From: a virus
Lineage: Duplodnaviria > Heunggongvirae > Uroviricota > Caudoviricetes
IMG/VR virus record: IMGVR_UViG_2671180778_000012
Span: 1-9,480 of that record
Direction: 5' to 3' (one strand)
Length of the DNA stretch: 9,480 nucleotides
Made by a program: the position numbers and the translations under genes. Below are positions 1 through 9,480 of the stretch, one piece after another. The notes beneath the pieces are model-generated. The model worked only from the letters and a program-made list of their open reading frames with translations. It made no database searches and had not been told where the DNA came from. How positions within the stretch are numbered: position 1 is the stretch's first letter; each line of letters starts with the position of its first letter.

Positions 1-717
1 ATGGATGATAACAATATATCGGTCAAACAATATATTATTTATTCGGTTATGAATGATTTAATTACTGGTGGGCGAGAATCTTCAGTTTTAAACGTTCCTG
101 TATCTTTATCCCCGAAAAACTCCACCATAGAGGCTATAAAACGCTTGATTGATGATATAAGAGATTATTTTTATAAATCAAAATATCCAACAAGAGAATT
201 TCTTTTGTGTTATGGTTTAGAATCAAGTGAAATCGAGCAATATCCTATTGAATTAGCTGCAAAAATGGATTCATGTGGTTTTTTAATATTTGATAGTAAA
301 CTATCTTGTCAGGTTGTCGATACTTTAAATTCAGCAGTTGCATTGTACCATGTCGGAATGCGTAATCACGCAGACAAACTTACTAGAGTTGGTGTTGAGT
401 TATTGCTTAATGATTTTTTTGAAGAAATTATATCGAACCATGAAAAAGATAAAAAAATAAAGGATGCTTTATCCTTATCACAGAAAGAAAAAGCGCGCAA
501 ACCAAGAAATCATTATTACAATGAAGTTATGCACGTAATTAAACTAACATGGGAAAAGTACCCTAAAGCCAGTAAAACAGGTTTATTGAACGAGCTTTCT
601 GTTTACTACCATGGGAAAGTAAGTAAAAACACGCTAGATAGATGGATTAAAGAATCAGGGGCACAACCACCAAAGCCTGATAAATACTCTTCGTTTGAGC
701 TTGTTCACCCCCAATAG
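1..717 (+). CDS. Hypothetical AT-rich protein (238 aa) with C-terminal helix-turn-helix-like segment; possible accessory/regulatory cargo
   Basis: Complete ATG..TAG ORF. Strongly AT-rich (first 60 nt about 23% GC) against about 50% GC for the rest of the window. C-terminal segment GLLNELSVYYHGKVSKNTLDRWIK resembles an HTH. No family recognised by eye. Confidence 0.6.
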   Translation: MDDNNISVKQYIIYSVMNDLITGGRESSVLNVPVSLSPKNSTIEAIKRLIDDIRDYFYKSKYPTREFLLCYGLESSEIEQYPIELAAKMDSCGFLIFDSKLSCQVVDTLNSAVALYHVGMRNHADKLTRVGVELLLNDFFEEIISNHEKDKKIKDALSLSQKEKARKPRNHYYNEVMHVIKLTWEKYPKASKTGLLNELSVYYHGKVSKNTLDRWIKESGAQPPKPDKYSSFELVHPQ

Positions 718-798
718 CTGGCTACGGTATTTTAATAGCTGGCTATTGAGGCTAAATAACTGGTAACAGCCCCACAGCAACTGGCTATTGGGCTAAAA
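714..798. repeat. Direct repeat array: CTGGCTA core at 718, 739, 781; 18-bp repeat CTGGCTATTG(A)GGCTAAA(A) at 739-756 and 781-798
   Basis: Read directly. Core copies are offset by 21 and 42 bp, i.e. whole numbers of helical turns. Array lies between the ORF1 stop and the AlpA-like gene. Confidence 0.75.
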
Positions 799-822
799 AC
801 AAAATACTCATTGATTGATATT

Positions 823-856
823 TATCACCGTTGTTACTTAGACGTACACGGTGATA
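823..856. promoter_or_regulatory. Inverted repeat TATCACCG-N18-CGGTGATA overlapping the RBS/start region of the AlpA-like gene; candidate operator
   Basis: Arms at 823-830 and 849-856 are exact reverse complements. Possible -35 TTGATA at 815-820 just upstream. No convincing -10, so promoter assignment is tentative. Confidence 0.4.
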
Positions 857-859
857 GAT

Positions 860-1069
860 ATGAATTTAAAGAAATCTGATTTATCAACTGACCGCCTTAC
901 ACGTGCTGAAGCTGCTGCCTACCTTGGCGTTAACAATCAAACACTGGCGAACTGGGCGTGTACTGGCAAGGTAAAAATCCCTTTCCATAAACTTGGTCGC
1001 AAAGTGCTGTATATGCGCACTGATCTCGATGCTTATCTTGCATCCACTCGCAGAACGCAGACGGTGTAA
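860..1069 (+). CDS. Excisionase-family HTH DNA-binding protein (AlpA/Xis/Vis-like), 69 aa
   Basis: Sequence LTRAEAAAYLGVNNQTLANWACTGKVKIPFHKLGRKVLYMRTDLDAYL fits the excisionase-family (AlpA/Xis-type) DNA-binding domain pattern. ATG at 860 is preferred over the in-frame GTG at 851. GGTGA lies 5 nt upstream of the ATG. Confidence 0.75.
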   Translation: MNLKKSDLSTDRLTRAEAAAYLGVNNQTLANWACTGKVKIPFHKLGRKVLYMRTDLDAYLASTRRTQTV

Positions 1070-1182
1070 GGGGGAGTGATGGCACATAAAACAAAGGCGA
1101 CCGGGGGCGGTCGCCAATGGATACACACTAAACTTGAACGCATCACCAACAATGCCACATTTGCGGCTGGTGGGCAATGTGA

Positions 1183-1371
1183 TCAGTCAGATTTGGTTCG
1201 TTCCAAGGTTTGCAACGAGAGCTTTTTCCTGTGCTCTTTAAGGAATTTCTCAAGAGCAAAAGCACATGGCGCGAATCTTTCTGATTCATGCTCTATCTTT
1301 CTGCGCCGTCTTTTCCGTGCCGGTGATAATGTTTTGGTCAATTCTTTATCGGTCATTGTGTTGTCCTGCAT
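1183..1371 (-). CDS. Small basic hypothetical protein (62 aa), uncertain
   Basis: ORF downstream of and co-oriented with the 1414..1719 gene. Charged, protein-like composition but no clear Shine-Dalgarno. Confidence 0.25.
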   Translation of the reverse strand: MQDNTMTDKELTKTLSPARKRRRRKIEHESERFAPCAFALEKFLKEHRKKLSLQTLERTKSD

Positions 1372-1413
1372 AGCAATGCGCCGTAATACCTTACACCACG
1401 GCGCTGATGGTGA

Positions 1414-1719
1414 TTACTCTGGTTCTTTGGTCTTGCGACGCTGGAGTTCTTCGCGTGCAACGGTGACAAGCTGCCCGATTTCTTCCGCTGCTTTGATGCC
1501 GATTTGTTCGACCTTAGCCAGGGCATCCAGTGACGACACAAGGGGATTTTCTCCGCTGCCTTCTGCTTGGCGGCGGGCTATTTCTCCGCGCATGGCGGTT
1601 ACGATAAATCCGGCATTGCTTTCGCCGTCCAGCTTAACGGATTCCATCCCTTGCATAACATCTAGTGGGACTCTGACAGTTGTCAGTTGTGATTTTGCGT
1701 TTTTGTTAGCCGTTGCCAT
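1414..1719 (-). CDS. Hypothetical 101-aa protein, possibly a ribbon-helix-helix-type DNA-binding regulator
   Basis: AGGAG Shine-Dalgarno 8 nt upstream of the ATG (plus-strand CTCCT at 1728-1732). About 40% of codons start with G, a strong coding signature. No Cys, E/A/K-rich. N-terminal SQLTTVRVPLDVMQGM resembles an RHH beta-strand plus helix; this fold assignment is inference. Confidence 0.65.
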   Translation of the reverse strand: MATANKNAKSQLTTVRVPLDVMQGMESVKLDGESNAGFIVTAMRGEIARRQAEGSGENPLVSSLDALAKVEQIGIKAAEEIGQLVTVAREELQRRKTKEPE

Positions 1720-1737
1720 TTCTGAAACTCCTAATCA

Positions 1738-1818
1738 TCGGTGTGTTTCAGTATACACAAAAAAAGAAATACAAAAAGCCTTGACGTGTGTTTCATGCGC
1801 TCATAACATGAAACACAC
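1738..1818. promoter_or_regulatory. Divergent promoter/operator region: 12-bp perfect inverted repeat GTGTGTTTCATG-N9-CATGAAACACAC (1786-1818), extra half-site GTGTGTTTCA (1741-1750), candidate sigma70 promoter (-35 TTGACG 1781-1786, -10 TAACAT 1804-1809)
   Basis: Palindrome and half-site copies read directly. Promoter hexamers have 17-bp spacing and overlap the palindrome. Region lies between the minus-strand gene start (1719) and the + strand small-ORF operon. Confidence 0.55.
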
Positions 1819-1916
1819 CGAAAGGATTGTTGAAATACAAAGAGCAACGCCCCGCAGTGCCGGAAACACATACGGGGCGTCTAACCACCAACGATAACGA
1901 GAGTATCGAGGCAGCT

Positions 1917-2120
1917 ATGAGAAATCATACCATACACCCGCAAGGGCGGGACTCGTACAACCTGAATAAATACATCTGGCGTTTTATCGCCCTGAGCACG
2001 GCACAACCGCGCGTGATTACCATTGAGGCCAGCAGCGAACAGGAAGCACGCCAGCAATCCCCGGCTGGCTGCGTGATGGTATTCGCCGCCCGTATTCGTC
2101 AGGGGGGGGGCCATGCCTGA
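1917..2120 (+). CDS. Small hypothetical protein (67 aa); faint resemblance to P4-type Icd-like proteins is a guess
   Basis: ATG at 1917 preceded by GAGG 5 nt upstream. The annotated upstream start at 1827 is TTG and unlikely. Ends ...FAARIRQGGGHA; the Gly codons are the G9 tract. Confidence 0.4.
   Translation: MRNHTIHPQGRDSYNLNKYIWRFIALSTAQPRVITIEASSEQEARQQSPAGCVMVFAARIRQGGGHA
2102..2110. repeat. G9 homopolymer tract at the junction of two small ORFs
   Basis: Nine consecutive G at 2102-2110, immediately before the ATG at 2113 and inside the last codons of the 1917..2120 ORF. Confidence 0.95.
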
Positions 2121-2433
2121 TATGTCAAATTACCAGTACCTGATTAATCCGCATTTTAACTGTGAGCATGATATTGCTAAAAAGGTTTATTCCGCTGCGG
2201 ATGGGGCTACTGACAATATATCAATGGCTGTTGCGTCAATTGGTAGCCTGATGTGGCATGCGTCAGAAAATGAGGACTATGACGAAAAGGCCATGCGCAT
2301 TGATATGGGTAATATTGGTTTGTTACTGGCAATGCTTGGACATTTTGATATTTCGTTACGGTGCACCATTGAAAATGCCACAGATGCATTAAATGCTATA
2401 AAGAAAGCGAATACTGATTCAAATCGGGGATAA
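2113..2433 (+). CDS. Hypothetical protein (106 aa)
   Basis: ATG at 2113 overlaps the upstream stop (ATGCCTGA). Alternative in-frame ATG at 2122. No family recognised. Confidence 0.5.
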   Translation: MPDMSNYQYLINPHFNCEHDIAKKVYSAADGATDNISMAVASIGSLMWHASENEDYDEKAMRIDMGNIGLLLAMLGHFDISLRCTIENATDALNAIKKANTDSNRG

Positions 2434-2439
2434 ATAATC

Positions 2440-2739
2440 ATGAGAACATATTTATCTGGCTTGACTGCCAGCGGTTATGCACACCCCCAAATTATCCCCG
2501 GCGCTATTTATCTGGATAAGAACGGTAACAGAGTAACGGTAAAAGAACTGATGTTTGACCGTGTGTATTTTATTCGTGATGGCTATTCATTTCATAGTTC
2601 GCTGAACGTGGAGATCTTTATTAGCAGATTCAGGCGGGAAATCCCGCTTTCCAGAAAAAACCATGTGTCACGTGTGAATGTGGATAAAAAACTACAGGAA
2701 CTGAAAAACATGATTGCCGCGTGGAGAGAGCAGAAATGA
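2440..2739 (+). CDS. Hypothetical protein (99 aa)
   Basis: ATG at 2440 with GGGGA 9 nt upstream. Stop TGA overlaps the primase ATG (ATGA at 2736-2739), suggesting translational coupling. Confidence 0.5.
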   Translation: MRTYLSGLTASGYAHPQIIPGAIYLDKNGNRVTVKELMFDRVYFIRDGYSFHSSLNVEIFISRFRREIPLSRKNHVSRVNVDKKLQELKNMIAAWREQK

Positions 2740-4553
2740 AAAAAGCGCCAAATTTAAAACACCAGCCGCGTGACAAAATGACGGAAGTCATCATTTTTGC
2801 GGGTAGTGATGCGTGGGCACATGCGAAGCAGTGGCAGGAACAGGACGGGCGACTGGCTGGCGATAACGTGCCACCTGTCTGGCTTGGAGAGCAACAACTT
2901 GCCGAACTGGACAACCTGCAAATCGTACCGGACGGACGCTATCGCGTGCGTCTCTATCAGGCGGGGTTATTGCGTCCGGGGCTTGTTAATACCATCGGGC
3001 AGAAACTGGCAGTGGCAGGTGTCAGGGATGCTGATTATTACCCTGAAGGAATGCACAGCCAGAAACGGGAGAACTGGCGCGAATATCTGGAACGTGAACG
3101 GGCAGAGCAGGCGGAAAAGAAAAAGGTAGTTGAACTGCCTGTAAAGAAAAAAGAGCGGGTAAAAGACGATAACGCGTCATCACTGGCGCTTAACCAGATG
3201 GGAGCAAGTCAACGCGGCGAAGTTCTCCTGGCACATTATGGCGGTGAACTGGCGATTCATGCTGACTCTGACACTGTTCACCATTACAACGGCGTTGTAT
3301 GGGAGCCAGTACAGGATAAAGAATTACAGCGAGCTATGGCACAGATTTTCATTGATGCGGAGATCAGCTATTCGCAGAACGCCATTAAATCGGCGGTCGA
3401 TACCATGAAGTTAAGTTTGCCTGTAATGGGGAATACAGCCCGTAACCTGATTGGATTCAGTAACGGGGTATTTGATACCAGAACAGGTAATTTTCGGGAG
3501 CATAACAAAAACGACTGGTTGTTAATTGCCAGTGAATTACCTTTCAGCCCACCAGCAGAGGGGGAAACGCTGGCAACACATGCGCCGAATTTCTGGAAGT
3601 GGTTACGCCGTTCGGTGGCTGAGAATGACCGCAAGGCGGATCGCGTACTGGCTGCATTATTCATGGTGCTGGCGAACCGGTACGACTGGCAGTTATTCAT
3701 TGAGGTAACAGGTCCAGGGGGAAGTGGTAAAAGCGTGATGGCGGAGATTTGCACCATGCTGGCGGGTAAGGCCAACACAGTATCGGCAAGCATGAAGGCG
3801 CTGGAAGATGCAAGGGAACGCGCGTTAGTGGTTGGCTTTTCGCTGATTATCATGCCGGATATGACCCGCTACGCTGGTGATGGGGCAGGGATTAAGGCTA
3901 TTACAGGCGGTGACAAGGTGGCAATTGACCCGAAACACAAAGCCCCCTACTCAACGCGTATTCCGGCAGTAGTGCTGGCGGTTAACAATAACGCCATGTC
4001 ATTCAGTGACCGCAGCGGGGGGATCTCACGTCGTCGGGTGATATTCAATTTTTCGGAAGTTGTACCGGAGAACGAACGTGATCCAATGCTGGCGGAAAAA
4101 ATAGAAGGTGAGCTGGCGGTAGTGATTCGCCATCTGCTTACACGGTTTGCTGACCAGGACGAAGCCAGACGCCTGTTATATGAGCAGCAGAAATCTGAAG
4201 AAGCACTGGCGATAAAGCGAGAGGGGGATTCGCTGGTGGACTTCTGCGGCTATCTCATGGCGTCGGTAATGTGTGATGGCCTGTTAGTGGGTAATGCTGA
4301 AATTGTGCCATTCAGCCCACGCAGGTATCTCTATCATGCCTATCTGGCTTATATGAGGGCACATGGGTTTGGTAAACCTGTAACACTGACGCGCTTCGGT
4401 AAAGATATGCCGGGGGCAATGGCGGAATATGGCAGGGAGTATATGAAACGGAAAACGAAGCACGGTTTGCGTTCAAACGTGACACTGACGGAGGAATCAG
4501 AAGACTGGATGCCATCATGTGTATCGGTCACTAATGACGATAGCAAAAATTAA
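2736..4553 (+). CDS. P4 alpha-type phage/plasmid primase-helicase (D5_N / primase C-terminal region plus SF3 P-loop NTPase)
   Basis: Walker A GPGGSGKS. Motifs NGVFDTRTG and RRRVIFNFSE are typical of the P4-family primase C-terminal / D5 helicase region. ATG at 2736 preferred over GTG at 2721 (GGAGAGAG 5 nt upstream). The N-terminal ~250 aa carry no motif I recognise. Confidence 0.85.
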   Translation: MKKAPNLKHQPRDKMTEVIIFAGSDAWAHAKQWQEQDGRLAGDNVPPVWLGEQQLAELDNLQIVPDGRYRVRLYQAGLLRPGLVNTIGQKLAVAGVRDADYYPEGMHSQKRENWREYLERERAEQAEKKKVVELPVKKKERVKDDNASSLALNQMGASQRGEVLLAHYGGELAIHADSDTVHHYNGVVWEPVQDKELQRAMAQIFIDAEISYSQNAIKSAVDTMKLSLPVMGNTARNLIGFSNGVFDTRTGNFREHNKNDWLLIASELPFSPPAEGETLATHAPNFWKWLRRSVAENDRKADRVLAALFMVLANRYDWQLFIEVTGPGGSGKSVMAEICTMLAGKANTVSASMKALEDARERALVVGFSLIIMPDMTRYAGDGAGIKAITGGDKVAIDPKHKAPYSTRIPAVVLAVNNNAMSFSDRSGGISRRRVIFNFSEVVPENERDPMLAEKIEGELAVVIRHLLTRFADQDEARRLLYEQQKSEEALAIKREGDSLVDFCGYLMASVMCDGLLVGNAEIVPFSPRRYLYHAYLAYMRAHGFGKPVTLTRFGKDMPGAMAEYGREYMKRKTKHGLRSNVTLTEESEDWMPSCVSVTNDDSKN

Positions 4554-4566
4554 ACTTATGGAATAA

Positions 4567-4795
4567 CTGTTCACCACTGTTCACCCTGTCATAAATATCT
4601 TTTATATCAGTATATTATAGGGTGAACAGTTATTTATGAACTGTTCACCAAACTATTCACTGTTCACCTTTTTGATTGTTTATTGAGCTTCAAGGGTGAA
4701 CAGTGGTGAACAGTTGGTGAATAGTTTTTGTGAAACTGTTCACCCCTTAACATTATGAATTAAAAGAGAAAATATCAAAAGGTGAACAGGTGAAG
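4567..4795. repeat. Iteron array, putative replication origin: 9-bp CTGTTCACC / GGTGAACAG in 9 perfect and 2 degenerate copies, flanking AT-rich segments
   Basis: Forward copies at 4567, 4577, 4641, 4660, 4736; reverse copies at 4621, 4695, 4705, 4781; degenerate copies at 4652 and 4716. Tandem pairs are 10 bp apart. AT-rich 4591-4620 is flanked by inverted copies. Array begins 14 bp after the primase stop. Confidence 0.65.
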
Positions 4796-4925
4796 GGTTA
4801 AAACGCAAAAATTTTAATTTACTGCTGTGAGATAAAGCCTATGACAGCGAAGCACACCAAAACAACAGGCGGGGAATGATGATCCGTACGGGGATAACAT
4901 ACCGTTTTAAGCAACGAGTAACAGA

Positions 4926-4948
4926 AGCCGGAGCAATCCGGCTTTTTT
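4926..4948 (+). terminator. Intrinsic terminator-like hairpin AGCCGGA-GCAA-TCCGGCT followed by a T run
   Basis: 7-bp perfect stem, GNRA-type GCAA loop, T run to 4948. Confidence 0.55.
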
Positions 4949-4950
4949 AT

Positions 4951-5022
4951 GGGTCCTCCCGGTGTAGTGACCTGCCACGGGGCGGGAACGGCGCGGAAAA
5001 AGGCTGGTTTTTGCATTTTCAT
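4951..5022 (+). repeat. Conserved 72-bp non-coding element, copy A (second copy at 7487-7558)
   Basis: Hand alignment to 7487-7558 gives 66 of 72 identical positions. Both copies start 2 nt after a terminator T run. Confidence 0.8.
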
Positions 5023-5209
5023 GGCGGCGGCAGCATGTGTGATAATTTATTGATAATTAAAAGTTATTTCTGTTTTCACCTGTACAATATTTTTTTCTCC
5101 CTGTCATTAGACCAGTTTGCAATTAATTGAAATATATAAATAAATCTGTTTTTCACCTGCCAGGTGGAGTTGCCTGTGTCAAAACGTGTTCAGATGGCGG
5201 GATATTTAT

Positions 5210-5232
5210 GCCGGATTTTCTCCGGCTTTTTT
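5210..5232 (+). terminator. Intrinsic terminator-like hairpin GCCGGA-TTTTC-TCCGGC followed by T6
   Basis: 6-bp stem and T6 read directly. Stem sequence matches the core of the 4926 hairpin. Confidence 0.5.
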
Positions 5233-5334
5233 GTGTCTGAATCTCATTAATCTGTTTTTATGATAGAAATATGTTTATCTACCACTTTTATCGATCAATA
5301 ATGTGCGCAGTTTAGTCAGTAAGAGGAAGTTACT

Positions 5335-5544
5335 GTGAGTTGTATTAATGACCTGAACACGGGCGATATCAGGGGTGGTTCCGTTCATCTGGATGCGCAG
5401 ACCGTTATGCGCCTTAAGCAGTACAGGATCGACCATATAAATCATCATCCTGACCAACCATTACCAGGTGTGGCGCAGATTGTCAGACATGCCGTAAACA
5501 CCTGGCTTAATCAGAATGGTTTTGCATCGGTGGGGGAACAATGA
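5335..5544 (+). CDS. Small hypothetical protein (69 aa), possibly ribbon-helix-helix-like, translationally coupled to the protease-capsid gene
   Basis: GTG start with AAGAGGAAG 5 nt upstream. Stop overlaps the next ATG (ATGA at 5541-5544). SVHLDAQTVMRLKQY resembles an RHH strand-helix; fold assignment is inference. Confidence 0.5.
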   Translation: MSCINDLNTGDIRGGSVHLDAQTVMRLKQYRIDHINHHPDQPLPGVAQIVRHAVNTWLNQNGFASVGEQ

Positions 5545-7454
5545 ATCGCTGGTACACCATTAAGGCGGCGGATGTTCGCGGAGCGGCGGATATATCTATC
5601 TATGAGGAGATTGGCGGCTTCGGTGTTACTGCAAAGCAGTTCGCGGAAGACCTGAAAGCCCTTGGCGATGTTTCACATATCAATCTGAGGATCCATTCAC
5701 CAGGTGGTGATGTGTTTGAAGGCATCGCCATCTATAACCTGCTACGGAATCATCCGGCAGACATTACGGTTTATATCGATGGTGTTGCGGCTTCAATGGC
5801 TTCGGTGGTCGCAATGGCTGGCGATCGTGTTGTGATGCCGGAAAACGCCATGATGATGATACATAAGCCGTGGGGTATCTCTGGCGGAAATGCTGGTGAT
5901 ATGCGTGATTATGCTGATTTGCTGGATAAGGTGGAAACCGTGTTAGTCCCTGCTTATGCCAGAAAAACGGGCAAATCAGCACAGGAAATTACCGCCATGC
6001 TGGAAGATGAAACCTGGATGGACGGGAAAGAATGCCTTAAGCACGGTTTTGCTGATGAATTGTTGCCATCCGTCAGAGCAATGGCGCGAATTGAATCGAA
6101 GCGCACAGGAGATTTTTTACATATGCCGGAAACCATTAAAGGAATGATTACACCGCCACAGGGAGCGGCAAATATTGCTGGTAATGAACAGAAACGCATC
6201 AATGGAATAAGTGAAGTGTTTAGCCTGTTCGGCAGTCGTTACGACGGGATCAAAATGGCGTGTCTGGAAGATGCATCATGTACACCGGAAATGGCCCGTG
6301 AAAAGCTGTTGAACGAGCTGGGGCGCGAGTCCACGCCATCCAATAAAAATACCCCGCCTCATATCTATGCCGGAAACGGAAACATAACAGGTGATGCAAT
6401 TCGTCAGGGGCTTTATTCCCGTCTTGGGTATGAACGGCCTGAACGAGGCAACCCTTACGCGATGATGAGTCTTTTTGAAATGGCCCAGGCATCACTGGTT
6501 GATCGTGGTATCACTGTGAGCGGTTTTATTAATCGCTCGCAGGTTGTTAATGCGGCTTTTACACACAGCAGCAGTGATTTTTCTCATATTCTGGCTGGTG
6601 GGGCTGAAAAATCTGTACTGAAAGGCTGGCAGGACAGCGGCGAAACGTTCCAGAAATGGACGCGTACCGGTTCGCTTTCAAACTTTCATGAAGCAAAGCG
6701 CGTTGGTCTGAATGGTTTTTCAAAGCTGGATAAAGTACCGGAAGGTGCGGAATATAAATACATCACCACCAGCGATAAAGGTGTACCTATTGCGCTGGCC
6801 ACGTACGGGAATATATTTTCCGTTACCCGTCAGGCCATTATCAACGATGACCTGACCCAGTTAACTACAATCCCCATGGCGATGGGACGCGCAGCTGCCA
6901 GAACAGTTGGCAATCTGGTTTATCTCCTGTTAACCAGCAACGGCAAGTTTACGGATGGTAAAGCGTTATTCCATGCCGATCATAAAAATCTTATTGCGAA
7001 GGATATGGACATGGAGGGGCTTAACGAAGCCCGTAAGCTGATGCGCCTCCAGGAAGACGCTAACGGCGATTCGCTGAATATTACCCCTGCATTTGTCCTG
7101 GTCCCCGCCGCGCTGGAGTCTGCCGCACATCGCGCCATTCTGTCATCGTCATCACTCTTTCCGGTTGATGGCGTGGGCACTATCAATCAGAACCCCGGCA
7201 TCATTAACGTGGTGAAAGATATGGCGGAGGTAATCGTTGAGCCACGTCTTGATAAAGCCAATAACAAGGAGTGGTATGTGGCAGCGGCGAAGGGTATGGA
7301 CACGATAGAGGTCGCTTATCTTGATGGTATTGATACGCCATATCTTGAGGAGCAGGAGGGCTTTACTGTTGATGGCGTCGCCTGGAAGGTGCGCATAGAT
7401 GCAGGTGTCGCGGCCCTCGACTATCGCGGATTACTGAAATCGAGTGGAGCATGA
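5541..7454 (+). CDS. ClpP-like (S14) prohead maturation protease fused to HK97-fold major capsid protein (637 aa)
   Basis: N-terminal ~190 aa has ClpP-type motifs (GVAASMASVVAMAG with active-site Ser context; MIHKPWG with His). C-terminal ~400 aa has the length and composition of an HK97/Mu gpT-like major head protein. GGGGGA 3 nt upstream of the ATG. Confidence 0.8.
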   Translation: MNRWYTIKAADVRGAADISIYEEIGGFGVTAKQFAEDLKALGDVSHINLRIHSPGGDVFEGIAIYNLLRNHPADITVYIDGVAASMASVVAMAGDRVVMPENAMMMIHKPWGISGGNAGDMRDYADLLDKVETVLVPAYARKTGKSAQEITAMLEDETWMDGKECLKHGFADELLPSVRAMARIESKRTGDFLHMPETIKGMITPPQGAANIAGNEQKRINGISEVFSLFGSRYDGIKMACLEDASCTPEMAREKLLNELGRESTPSNKNTPPHIYAGNGNITGDAIRQGLYSRLGYERPERGNPYAMMSLFEMAQASLVDRGITVSGFINRSQVVNAAFTHSSSDFSHILAGGAEKSVLKGWQDSGETFQKWTRTGSLSNFHEAKRVGLNGFSKLDKVPEGAEYKYITTSDKGVPIALATYGNIFSVTRQAIINDDLTQLTTIPMAMGRAAARTVGNLVYLLLTSNGKFTDGKALFHADHKNLIAKDMDMEGLNEARKLMRLQEDANGDSLNITPAFVLVPAALESAAHRAILSSSSLFPVDGVGTINQNPGIINVVKDMAEVIVEPRLDKANNKEWYVAAAKGMDTIEVAYLDGIDTPYLEEQEGFTVDGVAWKVRIDAGVAALDYRGLLKSSGA

Positions 7455-7461
7455 CAACAAG

Positions 7462-7484
7462 GGCGGCGATAGCCGCCTTTTTTT
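7462..7484 (+). terminator. Intrinsic terminator GGCGGC-GATA-GCCGCC followed by T7, 8 nt after the capsid stop
   Basis: Perfect 6-bp GC stem, 4-nt loop, seven T. Confidence 0.7.
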
Positions 7485-7486
7485 AC

Positions 7487-7558
7487 GGGTCCTCCCGGTG
7501 GGGTGGTCTGCCACGGGGCGGGAGCGGCGCGGAAAAAGGCTAGTTTTTGCATTTTCAT
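7487..7558 (+). repeat. Conserved 72-bp non-coding element, copy B
   Basis: 66 of 72 identity with 4951-5022. Lies 154 bp upstream of the Nu1-like gene. Confidence 0.8.
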
Positions 7559-7711
7559 TCGTCATCATCATCTTTCTATGATATTGAATTTTAAGTGTTT
7601 TTATTTTTGGTATGTTAATTTTGCTTGTTTTATGCTCAACATATAGCGCATTTTTTGACCTCTTCTGAAAGTTGTTCGCAAGATGCATGTTTAAAACATT
7701 CTGGAGCGGGT

Positions 7712-8197
7712 ATGGATCGAGAACTGAAAAATCTGATGCTGAACATTAATCAACTGGCGGCGATAGCGGGAATATGTCGTCAGACTGCGGCGGCAAGGCT
7801 GAAAAACATCCAGCCAGCCGGAGGGCATGACAAGCTAAAACTCTATCGGGTGACTGACATTCTGACCTGTTTTCTTGATCTTCCCGTTCCGGCATCACTG
7901 GAAGAAATGGAGCCACATGACCGTAAGGCCTGGTATCAGTCCGAACGTGAGCGCCTCAAGTTCGAACAGGAAACGGCGCAACTCATACCCGCCGATGATG
8001 TGCGAAAAGAGATGGCTATATGGGGGGAAATCGTAAGCGAGGAACTGGCAAAACTCCCCAATATTCTGGCACGTGATGCCGGGCTTAAACCGATGGCAGT
8101 AAACAGAGTGCAGTCAATTATTGACGATTTGCGTAATCAGATTATCAGCCGGATGGTAAAAAATGACGTAGTGAATGAGGTCGCAAAACAGGCATGA
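7712..8197 (+). CDS. Lambda Nu1-like small terminase subunit homologue (TerS / packaging-redirection type), 161 aa
   Basis: N-terminal HTH INQLAAIAGICRQTAAARLKN parallels lambda Nu1 KKQLADIFGASIRTIQNW, recalled from memory. ATG at 7712 with GGAG 5 nt upstream. The upstream TTG at 7625 is unlikely to be the start. Confidence 0.7.
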   Translation: MDRELKNLMLNINQLAAIAGICRQTAAARLKNIQPAGGHDKLKLYRVTDILTCFLDLPVPASLEEMEPHDRKAWYQSERERLKFEQETAQLIPADDVRKEMAIWGEIVSEELAKLPNILARDAGLKPMAVNRVQSIIDDLRNQIISRMVKNDVVNEVAKQA

Positions 8198-8481
8198 TAA
8201 TGACCGAATCTGAAATACTGCGATTAATCCGCTGTGCTGGTGGAATCAGCCAGTTGGCTGACGAACAGGCCGCGCAGCCGGATACAGTCACCGCTGAAAA
8301 TTACGCGCGTGTGGTGGCTGAGGTGATGCGCCGTGACGGTATTGAGCTTAACGGCGTGGATATGCGCAACATACGAACTAGAGTTCTTGAGTTGCTGGCA
8401 TACCGTCGCCGTTCTCAACAACGGAGGGAGAGCGCGAAAAATACTTACCAGTGGAAGAAGCCGGAACGGTTGCAGCGGTAG
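8194..8481 (+). CDS. Hypothetical protein (95 aa)
   Basis: ATG overlaps the TerS stop (ATGA at 8194-8197). No family recognised. Too short to be a large terminase. Confidence 0.45.
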   Translation: MIMTESEILRLIRCAGGISQLADEQAAQPDTVTAENYARVVAEVMRRDGIELNGVDMRNIRTRVLELLAYRRRSQQRRESAKNTYQWKKPERLQR

Positions 8482-8818
8482 ATTCCTGATATTCAGGAAA
8501 ACCACGAATCTGTGGGGTTTACTGGCGCGGTTACGGCGGTGACACGCACCGAGGCAGAACAATTACCGTAGGTTAAAGCGACAGTATTCACACCAAAGGC
8601 AGAAATTAGCGGTTAACGTAACTGACTGATATTTTCGGGAACAGCCAACGGCTGAGGCCGGAGCTATAAAAATAGCTTTGGGTACAGTCCTCAGTTTTGA
8701 GGGATGTTAACCAACTGAATAATAAGCAAACCTCAAAATTGAGTTTTGTATCTGCCTGAGTTATTTCTGTGCTAACTTGCTGATATTCCCGATAGCGCAA
8801 AAGTGCGTTGGCTGGTGG

Positions 8819-8990
8819 GTGAGTTGCAGATCTGCAACTCGACCATGAAATTACGGAAACTACCCGTAGTTTGGGTAGTAAGAGTAACACCCAGATTTTG
8901 GGGCTTACTCGCGATACCCAAATAAAGGGTATCGGTGTAAGAAATATCGTTTCTCATATGTGAGCACCGAGGGCGGAATTCCGCCTTCGG
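8819..8990. other. Cluster of palindromes/hairpins in non-coding DNA: 20-bp perfect palindrome 8821-8840, hairpins 8859-8879 and 8912-8934, near-palindrome 8967-8990
   Basis: All four read directly. 8821-8840 is GAGTTGCAGATCTGCAACTC. Hairpins are ACTACCC-N7-GGGTAGT and CGATACCC-N7-GGGTATCG. 8967-8990 is CCGAgGGCGGAATTCCGCCtTCGG. No long ORF with a coding signature covers this region. Confidence 0.6.
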
Positions 8991-9177
8991 TTACTTATTG
9001 TGCCCATGCACAGGGAGGGGCGGGTCAAATCTCTGTACCCTGACGTCTTCCGGACTGCCAGCCCCATCGTTTTTTTACGCCCGCGAAAAATAAAAATTGT
9101 TTGTATGTGAGTATTGTAGCCAGCAAAAGCTCTTTCTTTAGTGGCTTATTGTTTCTAATAGATTTTGGGAGGTAGAA

Positions 9178-9480
9178 ATGGGAGGCCCAGCGAAAGCTGG
9201 GCCGAGCTTGTTACGCTGTCATTACTTCAGCATGATAACTAAAGCTATACATACTAGCACTACGGCTATTGGGCATAGACCTAAATTGCCAAGTGCTGCG
9301 ATTAAACCTGTAACGGCAATCACACGTGCAGACAGCAGGTCTGAGCCCTTTCTTAAAGTATCCATTGATACCTCCGTCAGGGTTTTTGCCGGTCTCTTGG
9401 AGAGTTGGGGGCAAAAGTTCAGACCCGTAGCACTTTCTTGTTCGCAGGTGAACGGCTGCTACGACCCAACTGTTCTGTAG
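9178..9480 (+). CDS. Hypothetical protein (100 aa), uncertain
   Basis: GGGAGG 5 nt upstream of the ATG. ORF ends with TAG exactly at the window end. G-first codon fraction about 29%. Unusual amino-acid composition and a perfect hairpin right after the ATG leave coding status open. Confidence 0.4.
   Translation: MGGPAKAGPSLLRCHYFSMITKAIHTSTTAIGHRPKLPSAAIKPVTAITRADSRSEPFLKVSIDTSVRVFAGLLESWGQKFRPVALSCSQVNGCYDPTVL

Follow-up and report, generated by a model that had tools for sequence, protein, structure and literature searches.

The 9,480-nt stretch of DNA analysed here (hereafter the window; positions 1 to 9,480 of IMG/VR record IMGVR_UViG_2671180778_000012) very likely carries the lambda-type cohesive-end packaging site (cos) of a satellite of about 10.6 kb, a phage-inducible chromosomal island (PICI). 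The site lies between the satellite's capsid gene and its small-terminase gene (terS), and the conserved element of 72–80 nt found there would be the core of the cos. We refer to this site as copy B; a second copy of the element, copy A, is found 2,536 bp upstream. The homologies, positions, mosaic structure, and distribution among relatives reported below were all derived from sequence. An earlier, sequence-only reading of the window had expected a packaging recognition site near 7462–7558, and a lambda-type cos directly upstream of the small-terminase gene would agree with that expectation. The layout it described is real, with a terminator, a 72-mer, AT-rich DNA, and a small-terminase gene following one another in the lambda order of cos and then terS. 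The 72-mer is present downstream of the capsid stop codon (7487–7558) and matches the second copy at sixty-six of its seventy-two positions; the whole direct repeat (7479–7558 and 4943–5022) is 91 per cent identical over 80 nt. Coordinates of all features are given in Table 1.

The conserved core

We used the joined right and left ends of J02459 as the lambda cos query. The lambda ends align to the 72-mer and not to the hairpin that precedes it (TTTACGGGTCC(T)TCCGGTG ... ACGGGGCGG ... CGCGG; 46 of 77 positions, with one gap). cosQ, cosN, an AT-rich cosB, and terS follow one another in an order and at distances resembling those of lambda, and the 7-bp cosQ, the left half of cosN (GGGCGG), and the CG on both flanks are identical to it. 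The right half of cosN differs from lambda's at five of six positions, no similarity is detectable in cosB, the small terminase is a DUF1441 protein and not one of Pfam Phage_Nu1, and the distance from cosQ to the predicted nick is 1 nt shorter (22 bp, compared to 23 bp in lambda). Copies A and B, lambda cos, the cos of a lambda-like prophage in CFT073, and the two sites of the PICI EcCICFT073 (located in the CFT073 genome by their cosQ...cosN pattern) could all be aligned in register. Thirty-six columns of this six-way alignment are invariant, including those of cosQ, of the left cosN half, and of the CG on either side. The same three parts are conserved in the cos of lambda-like phages, while cohesive-end positions 7–12 are variable (Feiss, PMC4669245).

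The pattern GGGTCC-N18-34-CGGGGCGG has two matches in the window, at 4951 and 7487 on the + strand, and none in 200 shuffles. Both copies combine the features by which a lambda-like cos can be recognized: a cosQ 20–25 bp before the nick, GGGCGG as the left half of cosN, and CG flanks. Each also adjoins terS sequence, copy B standing 153 bp before the DUF1441 gene and copy A ending at a terS remnant. The predicted cohesive ends of the two copies are one base apart, at position 9 (A at 4988, G at 7524). Hybrid chromosomes of lambda and N15 that are mismatched at positions 9 and 12 are viable, with a yield about four-fold lower (PMC4669245).

Gifsy-2-like lambdoid phages (mEp460, phi458, vB_EcoS-569R4, L074, and DEC9B/Qin-like prophages) have the same 72-nt core. 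In phages a DUF1441 gene is located some 215 nt downstream of it and is followed by genes for a GpA-type large terminase, a portal, and a ClpP::capsid fusion. The core is near-invariant across eight phage and satellite loci, and CGCGGAAAAAGGCTAGTTTTTGCATTTTCAT, on the right side of cosN, is kept by both copies and by all related phages examined. Most DUF1441 loci of other genera lack the E. coli-type core pattern, which made them unusable for covariation. Both termini of the linear record of phage mEp460_4F5 fall within the core; the records of mEp460 and Ayreon are linearised near terS, not at cos.

cosB and the small terminase

The DNA between the 72-mer and terS, described in the earlier reading as about 150 bp and AT-rich, is 153 bp long (7559–7711) and has a G+C content of 32 per cent, compared to 46.6 per cent for the window overall. 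Similarity to candidate helpers extends through the 72-mer and the DNA downstream of it. The interval 7479–7720 is 97 per cent identical to the stretch from cos to the start of terS in prophage L074, which encodes a DUF1441 small terminase, a GpA large terminase, a portal, a ClpP::capsid fusion, and cement and other head proteins of the Gifsy-2 family. The predicted cosB of copy B is about 80 per cent identical to those of phages 569R4 and phi458.

PHROG 141, the family matched by the product of terS, is annotated as ‘terminase small subunit’. The sequence-only reading had called the gene Nu1-like, which holds only for its position and, tentatively, for its fold; the protein has no Pfam Nu1 match, and its fold and profile scores are weak. 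A PDB sequence search with the DUF1441 protein returned no match to Nu1 and none to RppC. In an AlphaFold model (mean predicted local distance difference test score, pLDDT, 78), residues 9–55 form a beta-alpha-alpha-beta-beta-alpha winged helix-turn-helix that is followed by long helices. In phages, DUF1441 homologues were always found between cos and a GpA-type large terminase (phi458, 569R4, mEp460, L074-76, L010-11, and L080-81).

The protein falls into two parts. Residues 1–94, which include the DNA-binding domain, are 100 per cent identical to a prophage small terminase (P0010), whereas residues 95–161 (window 7993–8197) share only about 49 per cent identity with it. Judged by its pattern of identities, this C-terminal module is a discrete, satellite-specific type: besides the window's own protein, twelve more protein clusters are at least 85 per cent identical in this part, every other homologue reaches at most 55 per cent, and the best tblastn match among 50,697 phage records is 60 per cent. 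The four distinct satellite-type proteins that we checked all come from PICIs (the window protein, L003; P0004, L071-73; P0006, L077-78; P0015, L079). The C-terminal half of lambda's small terminase is responsible for oligomerisation and for binding the large terminase (PMC9026076). The satellite version presumably engages the large terminase, or the helper's small terminase, in a different way; it could capture the large terminase, widen the helper range, or inhibit packaging in the fashion of Rpp, the packaging-redirection protein of EcCICFT073. The Shiga-toxin-converting prophages L080 and L081 encode a DUF1441 small terminase of 158 aa whose C-terminal half is of a third type, beside a large terminase of 707 aa, which suggests that in phages the C-terminal types track the type of large terminase.

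Cassette exchange

We placed the mosaic boundaries using sliding identity bins of 40 nt, comparing the window to prophage L074 and to satellites L077 and L079. Identity to the prophage is 90–100 per cent only within about 7500–7975 (100 per cent in most bins). Against the two satellites the picture is reversed, with 40–90 per cent inside the cassette and 90–100 per cent (mostly 98–100 per cent) only outside about 7540–7940. Both crossovers lie in conserved sequence, the cos core and the invariant middle of terS; therefore the site and its reader move together. As far as this mosaic pattern indicates, the block of cos, cosB, and DNA-binding domain is swapped with phages as one unit. Four satellite lineages carry at least three types of cosB, each matching the type of DNA-binding domain in the adjoining small terminase, and two of these types are common to phages. 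The N-terminal types of terS are likewise shared by satellites and phages and are paired with the adjoining cosB type.

The second copy

By homology, copy A (4951–5183) is a second complete cos in the same orientation, carrying the cosB of another prophage group. Most plausibly, it would let a second group of helpers package the satellite without any satellite protein. The interval is 91–93 per cent identical (BLAST) to DEC9B and to a Qin-like prophage of APEC O78, where it lies upstream of a gene for a 175-aa DUF1441 small terminase, and its cosB aligns nearly base for base with this group. The 175-aa protein and the window's small terminase are 32 per cent identical. The large terminases of the L074 and DEC9B-type groups are 88 per cent identical overall and near-identical over their C-terminal 320 or so residues (one mismatch seen), which fits a core shared through the large terminase and a cosB that differs with the small terminase. 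Copy A has a perfect integration host factor (IHF) consensus on the − strand at 5043–5055, about 64–76 nt from the start of the cohesive end. In lambda, used as a control, the best IHF match (one mismatch) is at 79–91 and is also on the − strand.

At the downstream end of copy A, the interval 5176–5232 retains the first codons of a phage-type terS of the DEC9B type (GTGTCAAA...), which then give way to unrelated sequence and a terminator (5210–5226 plus a T run). This stump of the small-terminase gene that copy A used to precede is conserved in four satellite lineages. Upstream, the GCCGGA hairpin that precedes copy A also precedes the + strand cos of EcCICFT073. To survey its distribution we used twenty-six IMG/VR relatives, chosen by the presence of the satellite (copy B) hairpin, and eighteen of these contigs carry copy A, together with its cosB, some 2.5 kb upstream and in direct orientation, with 94–100 per cent identity. 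The cosQ of copy A is mutated to GGGGCCT in L077 and L078 (6252–6294), and L087 and L097 have an extra inverted core downstream, as in EcCICFT073.

Proposed packaging and alternative explanations

The mechanism we propose is based on the analogy with lambda, in which the small terminase acts at cosB and the large terminase nicks cosN (PMC9026076, PMC4669245). The nick positions, the direction of packaging, which phages act as helpers, and what copy A and the C-terminal module do are all inferred. The satellite would be induced by a Gifsy-2-like lambdoid helper, after which a small terminase would bind cosB on satellite concatemers, with the AT-rich 7559–7711 as the landing site of the winged-helix DUF1441 protein. 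Either the satellite's or the helper's small terminase could serve, because their DNA-binding domains are identical. The helper's GpA-type large terminase would read the core and nick cosN. Packaging would then run rightward from terS through att, int, and the replication genes to copy A, with the DNA entering the head cosB/terS-first, and would stop at a later cosQ/cosN when the head is full. An L074-type helper would use copy B and a DEC9B-type helper copy A. Particles could terminate at either site, because the two are direct repeats 2.5 kb apart in a unit of about 10.6 kb.

Several observations weigh against this explanation. In the mEp460_4F5 record the termini are 5 nt left of where homology to lambda places the nick, so the exact cut sites are uncertain. 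None of the twenty-six IMG/VR relatives, most of which are prophage predictions, ends at the core, and they have no terminal repeats. An hhalign comparison of the small terminase to Nu1 residues 3–47 gave an E-value of 0.0019 and a probability of 14 per cent. The best Foldseek matches, to lambda TerS (chain 6hn7_B) and to MerR-type domains, had E-values of 0.26 or above, and we did not take matches this weak as proof of a Nu1 fold. The IHF-type bend site that the earlier reading had suggested for the AT-rich stretch has a counterpart in an IHF-like match at 7577–7589, but it is weak, with two mismatches to the consensus; the same is true of prophage L074, while phi458-type phages have a perfect IHF site at the homologous place. 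A repeat search for R sites in the two cosB regions gave nothing usable. With regard to copy A, L086 lacks it (and is about 285 nt shorter) despite having the flanking end of ssb, and four further IMG/VR contigs have one core only; copy A may be dispensable or a relic. Finally, the cosB and the DNA-binding domain are identical to the phage's, so there is no obvious preference for satellite over helper DNA, unlike with Rpp or with the TerS of Staphylococcus aureus pathogenicity islands (SaPIs).

One tentative extension of the proposed mechanism is that the satellite has found a third way to hijack cos packaging, by means of a chimeric small terminase. The DNA-binding domain and cosB would be repeatedly replaced by recombination with resident lambdoid phages, for which the conserved sequence of the cos core and of mid-terS would provide the homology arms. 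The satellite-only C-terminal half would capture or disable the helper's large terminase, and the second cos would provide a dual helper range. We consider this possible, though somewhat doubtful.

It is also conceivable, if again rather unlikely, that the site is a cos but that the DUF1441 protein is an Rpp-like interference factor, which occupies cosB or co-assembles with the helper's small terminase and thereby poisons or redirects helper packaging. Its gene occupies the slot of rppA, and its C-terminal module is confined to satellites (the thirteen clusters described above) and corresponds to the half that handles oligomerisation and large-terminase binding in lambda; in phages, C-terminal types go with the large-terminase type. 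However, the protein has no sequence similarity to RppC, and a poison binding the same cosB would also block the satellite's own copy B. The module also retains most of the motifs of phage small terminases, suggesting that large-terminase binding has been kept.

We think it improbable that copy B is a passenger, brought in by recent recombination with a prophage, in an island that is packaged through copy A only or that is decaying and no longer packaged. The 98–100 per cent identity of the cassette at 7500–7975 to a prophage does imply a recent transfer, and the cassette offers no basis for telling satellite from helper DNA. In addition, EcCICFT073 needs only one of its two cos sites, and deleting the other raises transfer (PMC6092414). 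Nevertheless, all satellite relatives examined keep an intact cos B and an intact terS, with matched types of cosB and DNA-binding domain. All subsites of copy B are intact, a free circular relative exists, and it is copy A, not copy B, that is sometimes missing (in a sample picked through the copy B hairpin).

The sequence-only reading had looked for a lambda cosN-like sequence in the hairpin upstream of the core, where a 9-mer, GGGCGGCGA, is indeed identical to bases 1–9 of lambda J02459. The match is at 7461–7469, and does not begin at 7462 as had been stated. It is rare (0.08 occurrences expected in the window), and the hairpin is conserved among satellite relatives, where L071, L077, and L079 keep it as the end of the capsid gene. 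Even so, it is very unlikely that the 9-mer is the cosN and the 72-mer an accessory site, because the 9-mer has no CG flank and no cosQ about 22 bp upstream, and because none of the phages with this cos and small terminase has the hairpin. In these phages (vB_EcoS-569R4, phi458, mEp460, and prophages L012–L015 and L074) it is replaced by unrelated sequence. Positions 10–12 also differ from lambda, and it is 55 nt further downstream that the predicted 12-mer of the cohesive end starts. The hairpin ahead of copy A is a different one, and in relative L108 an insertion of about 785 bp, made up of phage tail-gene fragments, takes the hairpin's place and leaves the core intact. The 9-mer occurs a second time, at an unrelated location (2083–2091, − strand), and so is rare in the window yet not specific to the hairpin site.

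What the hairpin does have is the make-up of a textbook intrinsic terminator, close behind a stop codon. A G+C-rich stem, GGGCGGC / GCCGCC(C) with the loop GATA (7461–7477), is followed by seven Ts (7478–7484), and the structure starts 7 nt past the capsid TGA. As RNA, 7461–7484 folds at −16.2 kcal/mol (z = −4.3), with a 9-bp stem that has six G-C pairs in its core (GGCGGC/GCCGCC). Our terminator scan reported this stem on the − strand only; the T7 tail on the + strand was read straight from the sequence. The hairpin is best read as the terminator of the capsid gene and no part of the cos, and the 9-mer match as a coincidence of a G+C-rich stem. We also considered the 9-mer as a relic of an older lambda-type cosN, and ruled this out given the missing cosQ and CG flank and the full explanation offered by the terminator stem. 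Within 2083–2108 (− strand), the second 9-mer is 8 nt from a run of nine Cs (Gs on the + strand), where the Icd-like gene meets the open reading frame after it, and this homopolymer could be a frameshift-prone tract or a sequencing-error hotspot.

Least credible of all is that the 80-mer is a structured RNA or a transcriptional regulator (e.g. a late-operon attenuator) and not a packaging site: both copies follow terminators and are G+C-rich with some self-complementarity, but they fold no better than shuffles (z = −1.6 and −0.4), an Rfam scan of 4800–7800 found no match at E up to 1, and the pattern of conservation is that of lambda cosQ and cosN.

The host island

The window is 99.8 per cent identical to an island of about 10.6 kb in E. 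coli Ecol_224, located between rcnR and thiM. The island begins with genes for an integrase, a DUF6387 protein, a helix-turn-helix (HTH) regulator, YlcI, an Icd-like protein, and a DUF4222 protein, and continues with those for a D5-type primase, the capsid fusion, the DUF1441 protein, and a protein of 93–95 aa. HTH_17, DUF4222, and D5-type primase domains were identified among the window proteins. The host element is a PICI satellite of E. coli with the gene organization of Gram-negative PICIs: an island of about 10 kb with an integrase, a regulator, a primase-replicase with an iteron origin, few morphogenesis genes, and site-specific insertion. It is not a capsid-forming PICI (cf-PICI), having only the protease::capsid fusion and the small terminase; no portal, connector, or large-terminase genes were found in the window or its relatives.

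The capsid fusion matches Pfam CLP_protease (2e-35), Phage_capsid_4 (1.6e-53), and PHROG 133, and shares 57 per cent identity with its 675-aa counterpart in the Gifsy-2-type prophage L074. The packaging module is bracketed by two small genes (5335–5544, PHROG 4934; 8194–8481, PHROG 1561) that are conserved in satellites and have no assigned function. Directly 3′ of the primase gene, GGTGAACAG iterons form a dense array of direct and inverted copies (4550–4790), probably the origin from which the satellite replicates. What remains of the 3′ end of an ssb gene (ending ...DNIPF*) is found at 4858–4912, just upstream of the copy A terminator; the gene is intact in relatives L071-L079. One further protein, P0005 (234 aa, from E. 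coli O9,30:H25), joins a ClpP-protease N-terminus to a DUF1441 C-terminus and may have arisen in some relative when a deletion joined the capsid gene to terS.

Satellite relatives are inserted at chromosomal sites other than rcnR/thiM. Relatives with different integrases and replicases retain the same module of ssb, cos A, a small open reading frame, capsid, cos B, terS, and a 94-aa gene. One of them, L108 (NZ_CP148328.1, 1-10790), was deposited as a circular 10,790-bp ‘plasmid’ from a clinical E. coli and has both cos cores. This record is probably an excised satellite circle caught by the assembly, and it suggests that the satellite family excises and circularises.

Table 1. Positions in the window of the two copies of the cos core, their predicted subsites, and neighbouring features.
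Feature	Position	Strand	Basis
Terminator hairpin GCCGGA-GCAA-TCCGGC then T6, after ssb remnant	4927–4948	+	−16.2 kcal/mol, z = −4.6
Copy A cos core	4943–5022	+	91% repeat of copy B
cosQ, copy A	4951–4957	+	Pattern match
cosN, copy A: CG/GGGCGGGAACGG/CG	4978–4993	+	Homology
Predicted 12-nt 5′ cohesive end, copy A: GGGCGGGAACGG	4980–4991	+	Homology
Predicted cosB, copy A, differing from copy B in specificity type; its end takes in the first few codons of a lost phage terS	5023–5183	+	Homology to DEC9B/Qin-like prophages
ClpP-type prohead protease::major capsid fusion, 637 aa, the satellite's own capsid gene	5541–7454 (TGA 7452–7454)	+	Pfam, PHROG
Intrinsic terminator of the capsid gene, containing GGGCGGCGA	7461–7484	+	Fold and T7
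Copy B cos core (cosQ, cosN, I2-like segment), 80-nt repeat	7479–7558	+	Alignment to lambda cos
cosQ, copy B: GGGTCCT	7487–7493	+	Identical to the 7-bp cosQ of lambda
Putative exchanged cassette: right part of cos core, cosB, part of terS for the DNA-binding domain	~7500–7975	+	Sliding identity
cosN, copy B: CG/GGGCGGGAGCGG/CG	7514–7529	+	Homology to lambda
Predicted 12-nt 5′ cohesive end, copy B: GGGCGGGAGCGG	7516–7527	+	Nick positions by homology
Conserved segment right of cosN, at the lambda I2 position	7530–7558	+	CGCGGAAAAAGGCTAGTTTTTGCATTTTCAT conserved
Predicted cosB, copy B (small-terminase binding region)	7559–7711	+	Homology to phage cosB
Small-terminase homologue, 161 aa	7712–8197 (ATG 7712)	+	Pfam DUF1441 1.7e-36; PHROG 141 1.5e-57

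Comparison with known systems

The closest parallel is EcCICFT073, whose sites cos1 and cos2 are reported to be functional (Fillol-Salom 2018, PMC6092414; 2019, PMC6739421). Like the window's satellite, it is a Gram-negative PICI that encodes an integrase, a regulator of the AlpA type, DUF4222, a primase, and a capsid homologue; its last gene is likewise conserved (73 per cent identity to the window gene at 8194–8481). It also has two cos sites with a lambda-like cosQ and cosN, one of them behind a terminator and ahead of a packaging-redirection gene. That gene, directly after the + strand cos, is rppA (C_RS07025 matches RppC, PDB 6HLK, at 5e-31). The same slot here holds the DUF1441 gene, which is unrelated to Rpp (pairwise BLASTP E 9) and does not qualify as its homologue. 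The cos sites of EcCICFT073 are inverted and flank rppA, whereas those of the window are direct repeats flanking the capsid gene, and its cosN is lambda's, whereas the right half here is GAGCGG or GAACGG. Its cosB is unlike any phage cosB and is read by a heterodimer of Rpp and TerS (PMC6092414, PMC6739421). Here, by contrast, both cosB regions are phage-type (about 97 and 91–93 per cent identical to those of prophages), and the gene downstream is a small-terminase homologue and not rpp.

With the Gifsy-2-like phages, the satellite shares the cosB of copy B and the DNA-binding domain of the small terminase, and its copy A has the cosB of the DEC9B group. It differs from them in that the core follows satellite terminators, the genes for large terminase, portal, and tail are missing from what comes after, and terS is of the satellite type in its C-terminal half.

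There are also parallels among SaPIs. SaPIbov5 carries its helper's cos site (as cited in PMC6092414), so that in both cases a helper packaging site has been copied, and both encode a capsid homologue (Ccm in SaPIbov5). The TerS of pac-type SaPIs is a precedent for a small terminase encoded by a satellite. The SaPIs belong to another bacterial phylum and their sequences are unrelated, and SaPI TerS reads a satellite-specific pac, whereas the DNA-binding domain and the site described here are the helper's. A final parallel is the hybrid small terminase of lambda and 21, which combines the DNA-binding domain of one phage with the large-terminase-binding half of the other (PMC9026076). The two-module logic, the crossover in the middle of terS, and a cosB that travels with the N-terminal domain are the same; that hybrid was made in the laboratory between two phages, while the exchange seen here is natural, recurrent, and between phage and satellite.

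Discussion

That PICIs have cos sites, and even two of them (EcCICFT073), is already known, and a cos upstream of terS is standard in lambdoid phages. What is apparently new is a cassette of cos, cosB, and the DNA-binding part of TerS that is exchanged with phages, together with a satellite-specific C-terminal half of TerS. Our search of the open-access literature found no account of a satellite that combines two phage-type cosB specificities, a DNA-binding domain identical to the helper's, and a satellite-only C-terminal module by way of cassette exchange. The single mechanism we found described for cos packaging of Gram-negative PICIs is that of Rpp on a cosB that is not phage-like.

Assigning cosQ and cosN to the core provides precise sites to mutate and exact predicted ends, and corrects a tempting wrong assignment to the hairpin. 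If the C-terminal half of the small terminase diverts packaging, molecular piracy by such a mechanism would be new. The exchange of cassettes would account for the way in which satellites keep pace with changes in the packaging specificity of their helpers. Because helpers with a head of this type include Shiga-toxin-converting phages, such exchange may have a bearing on gene transfer among pathogenic E. coli.

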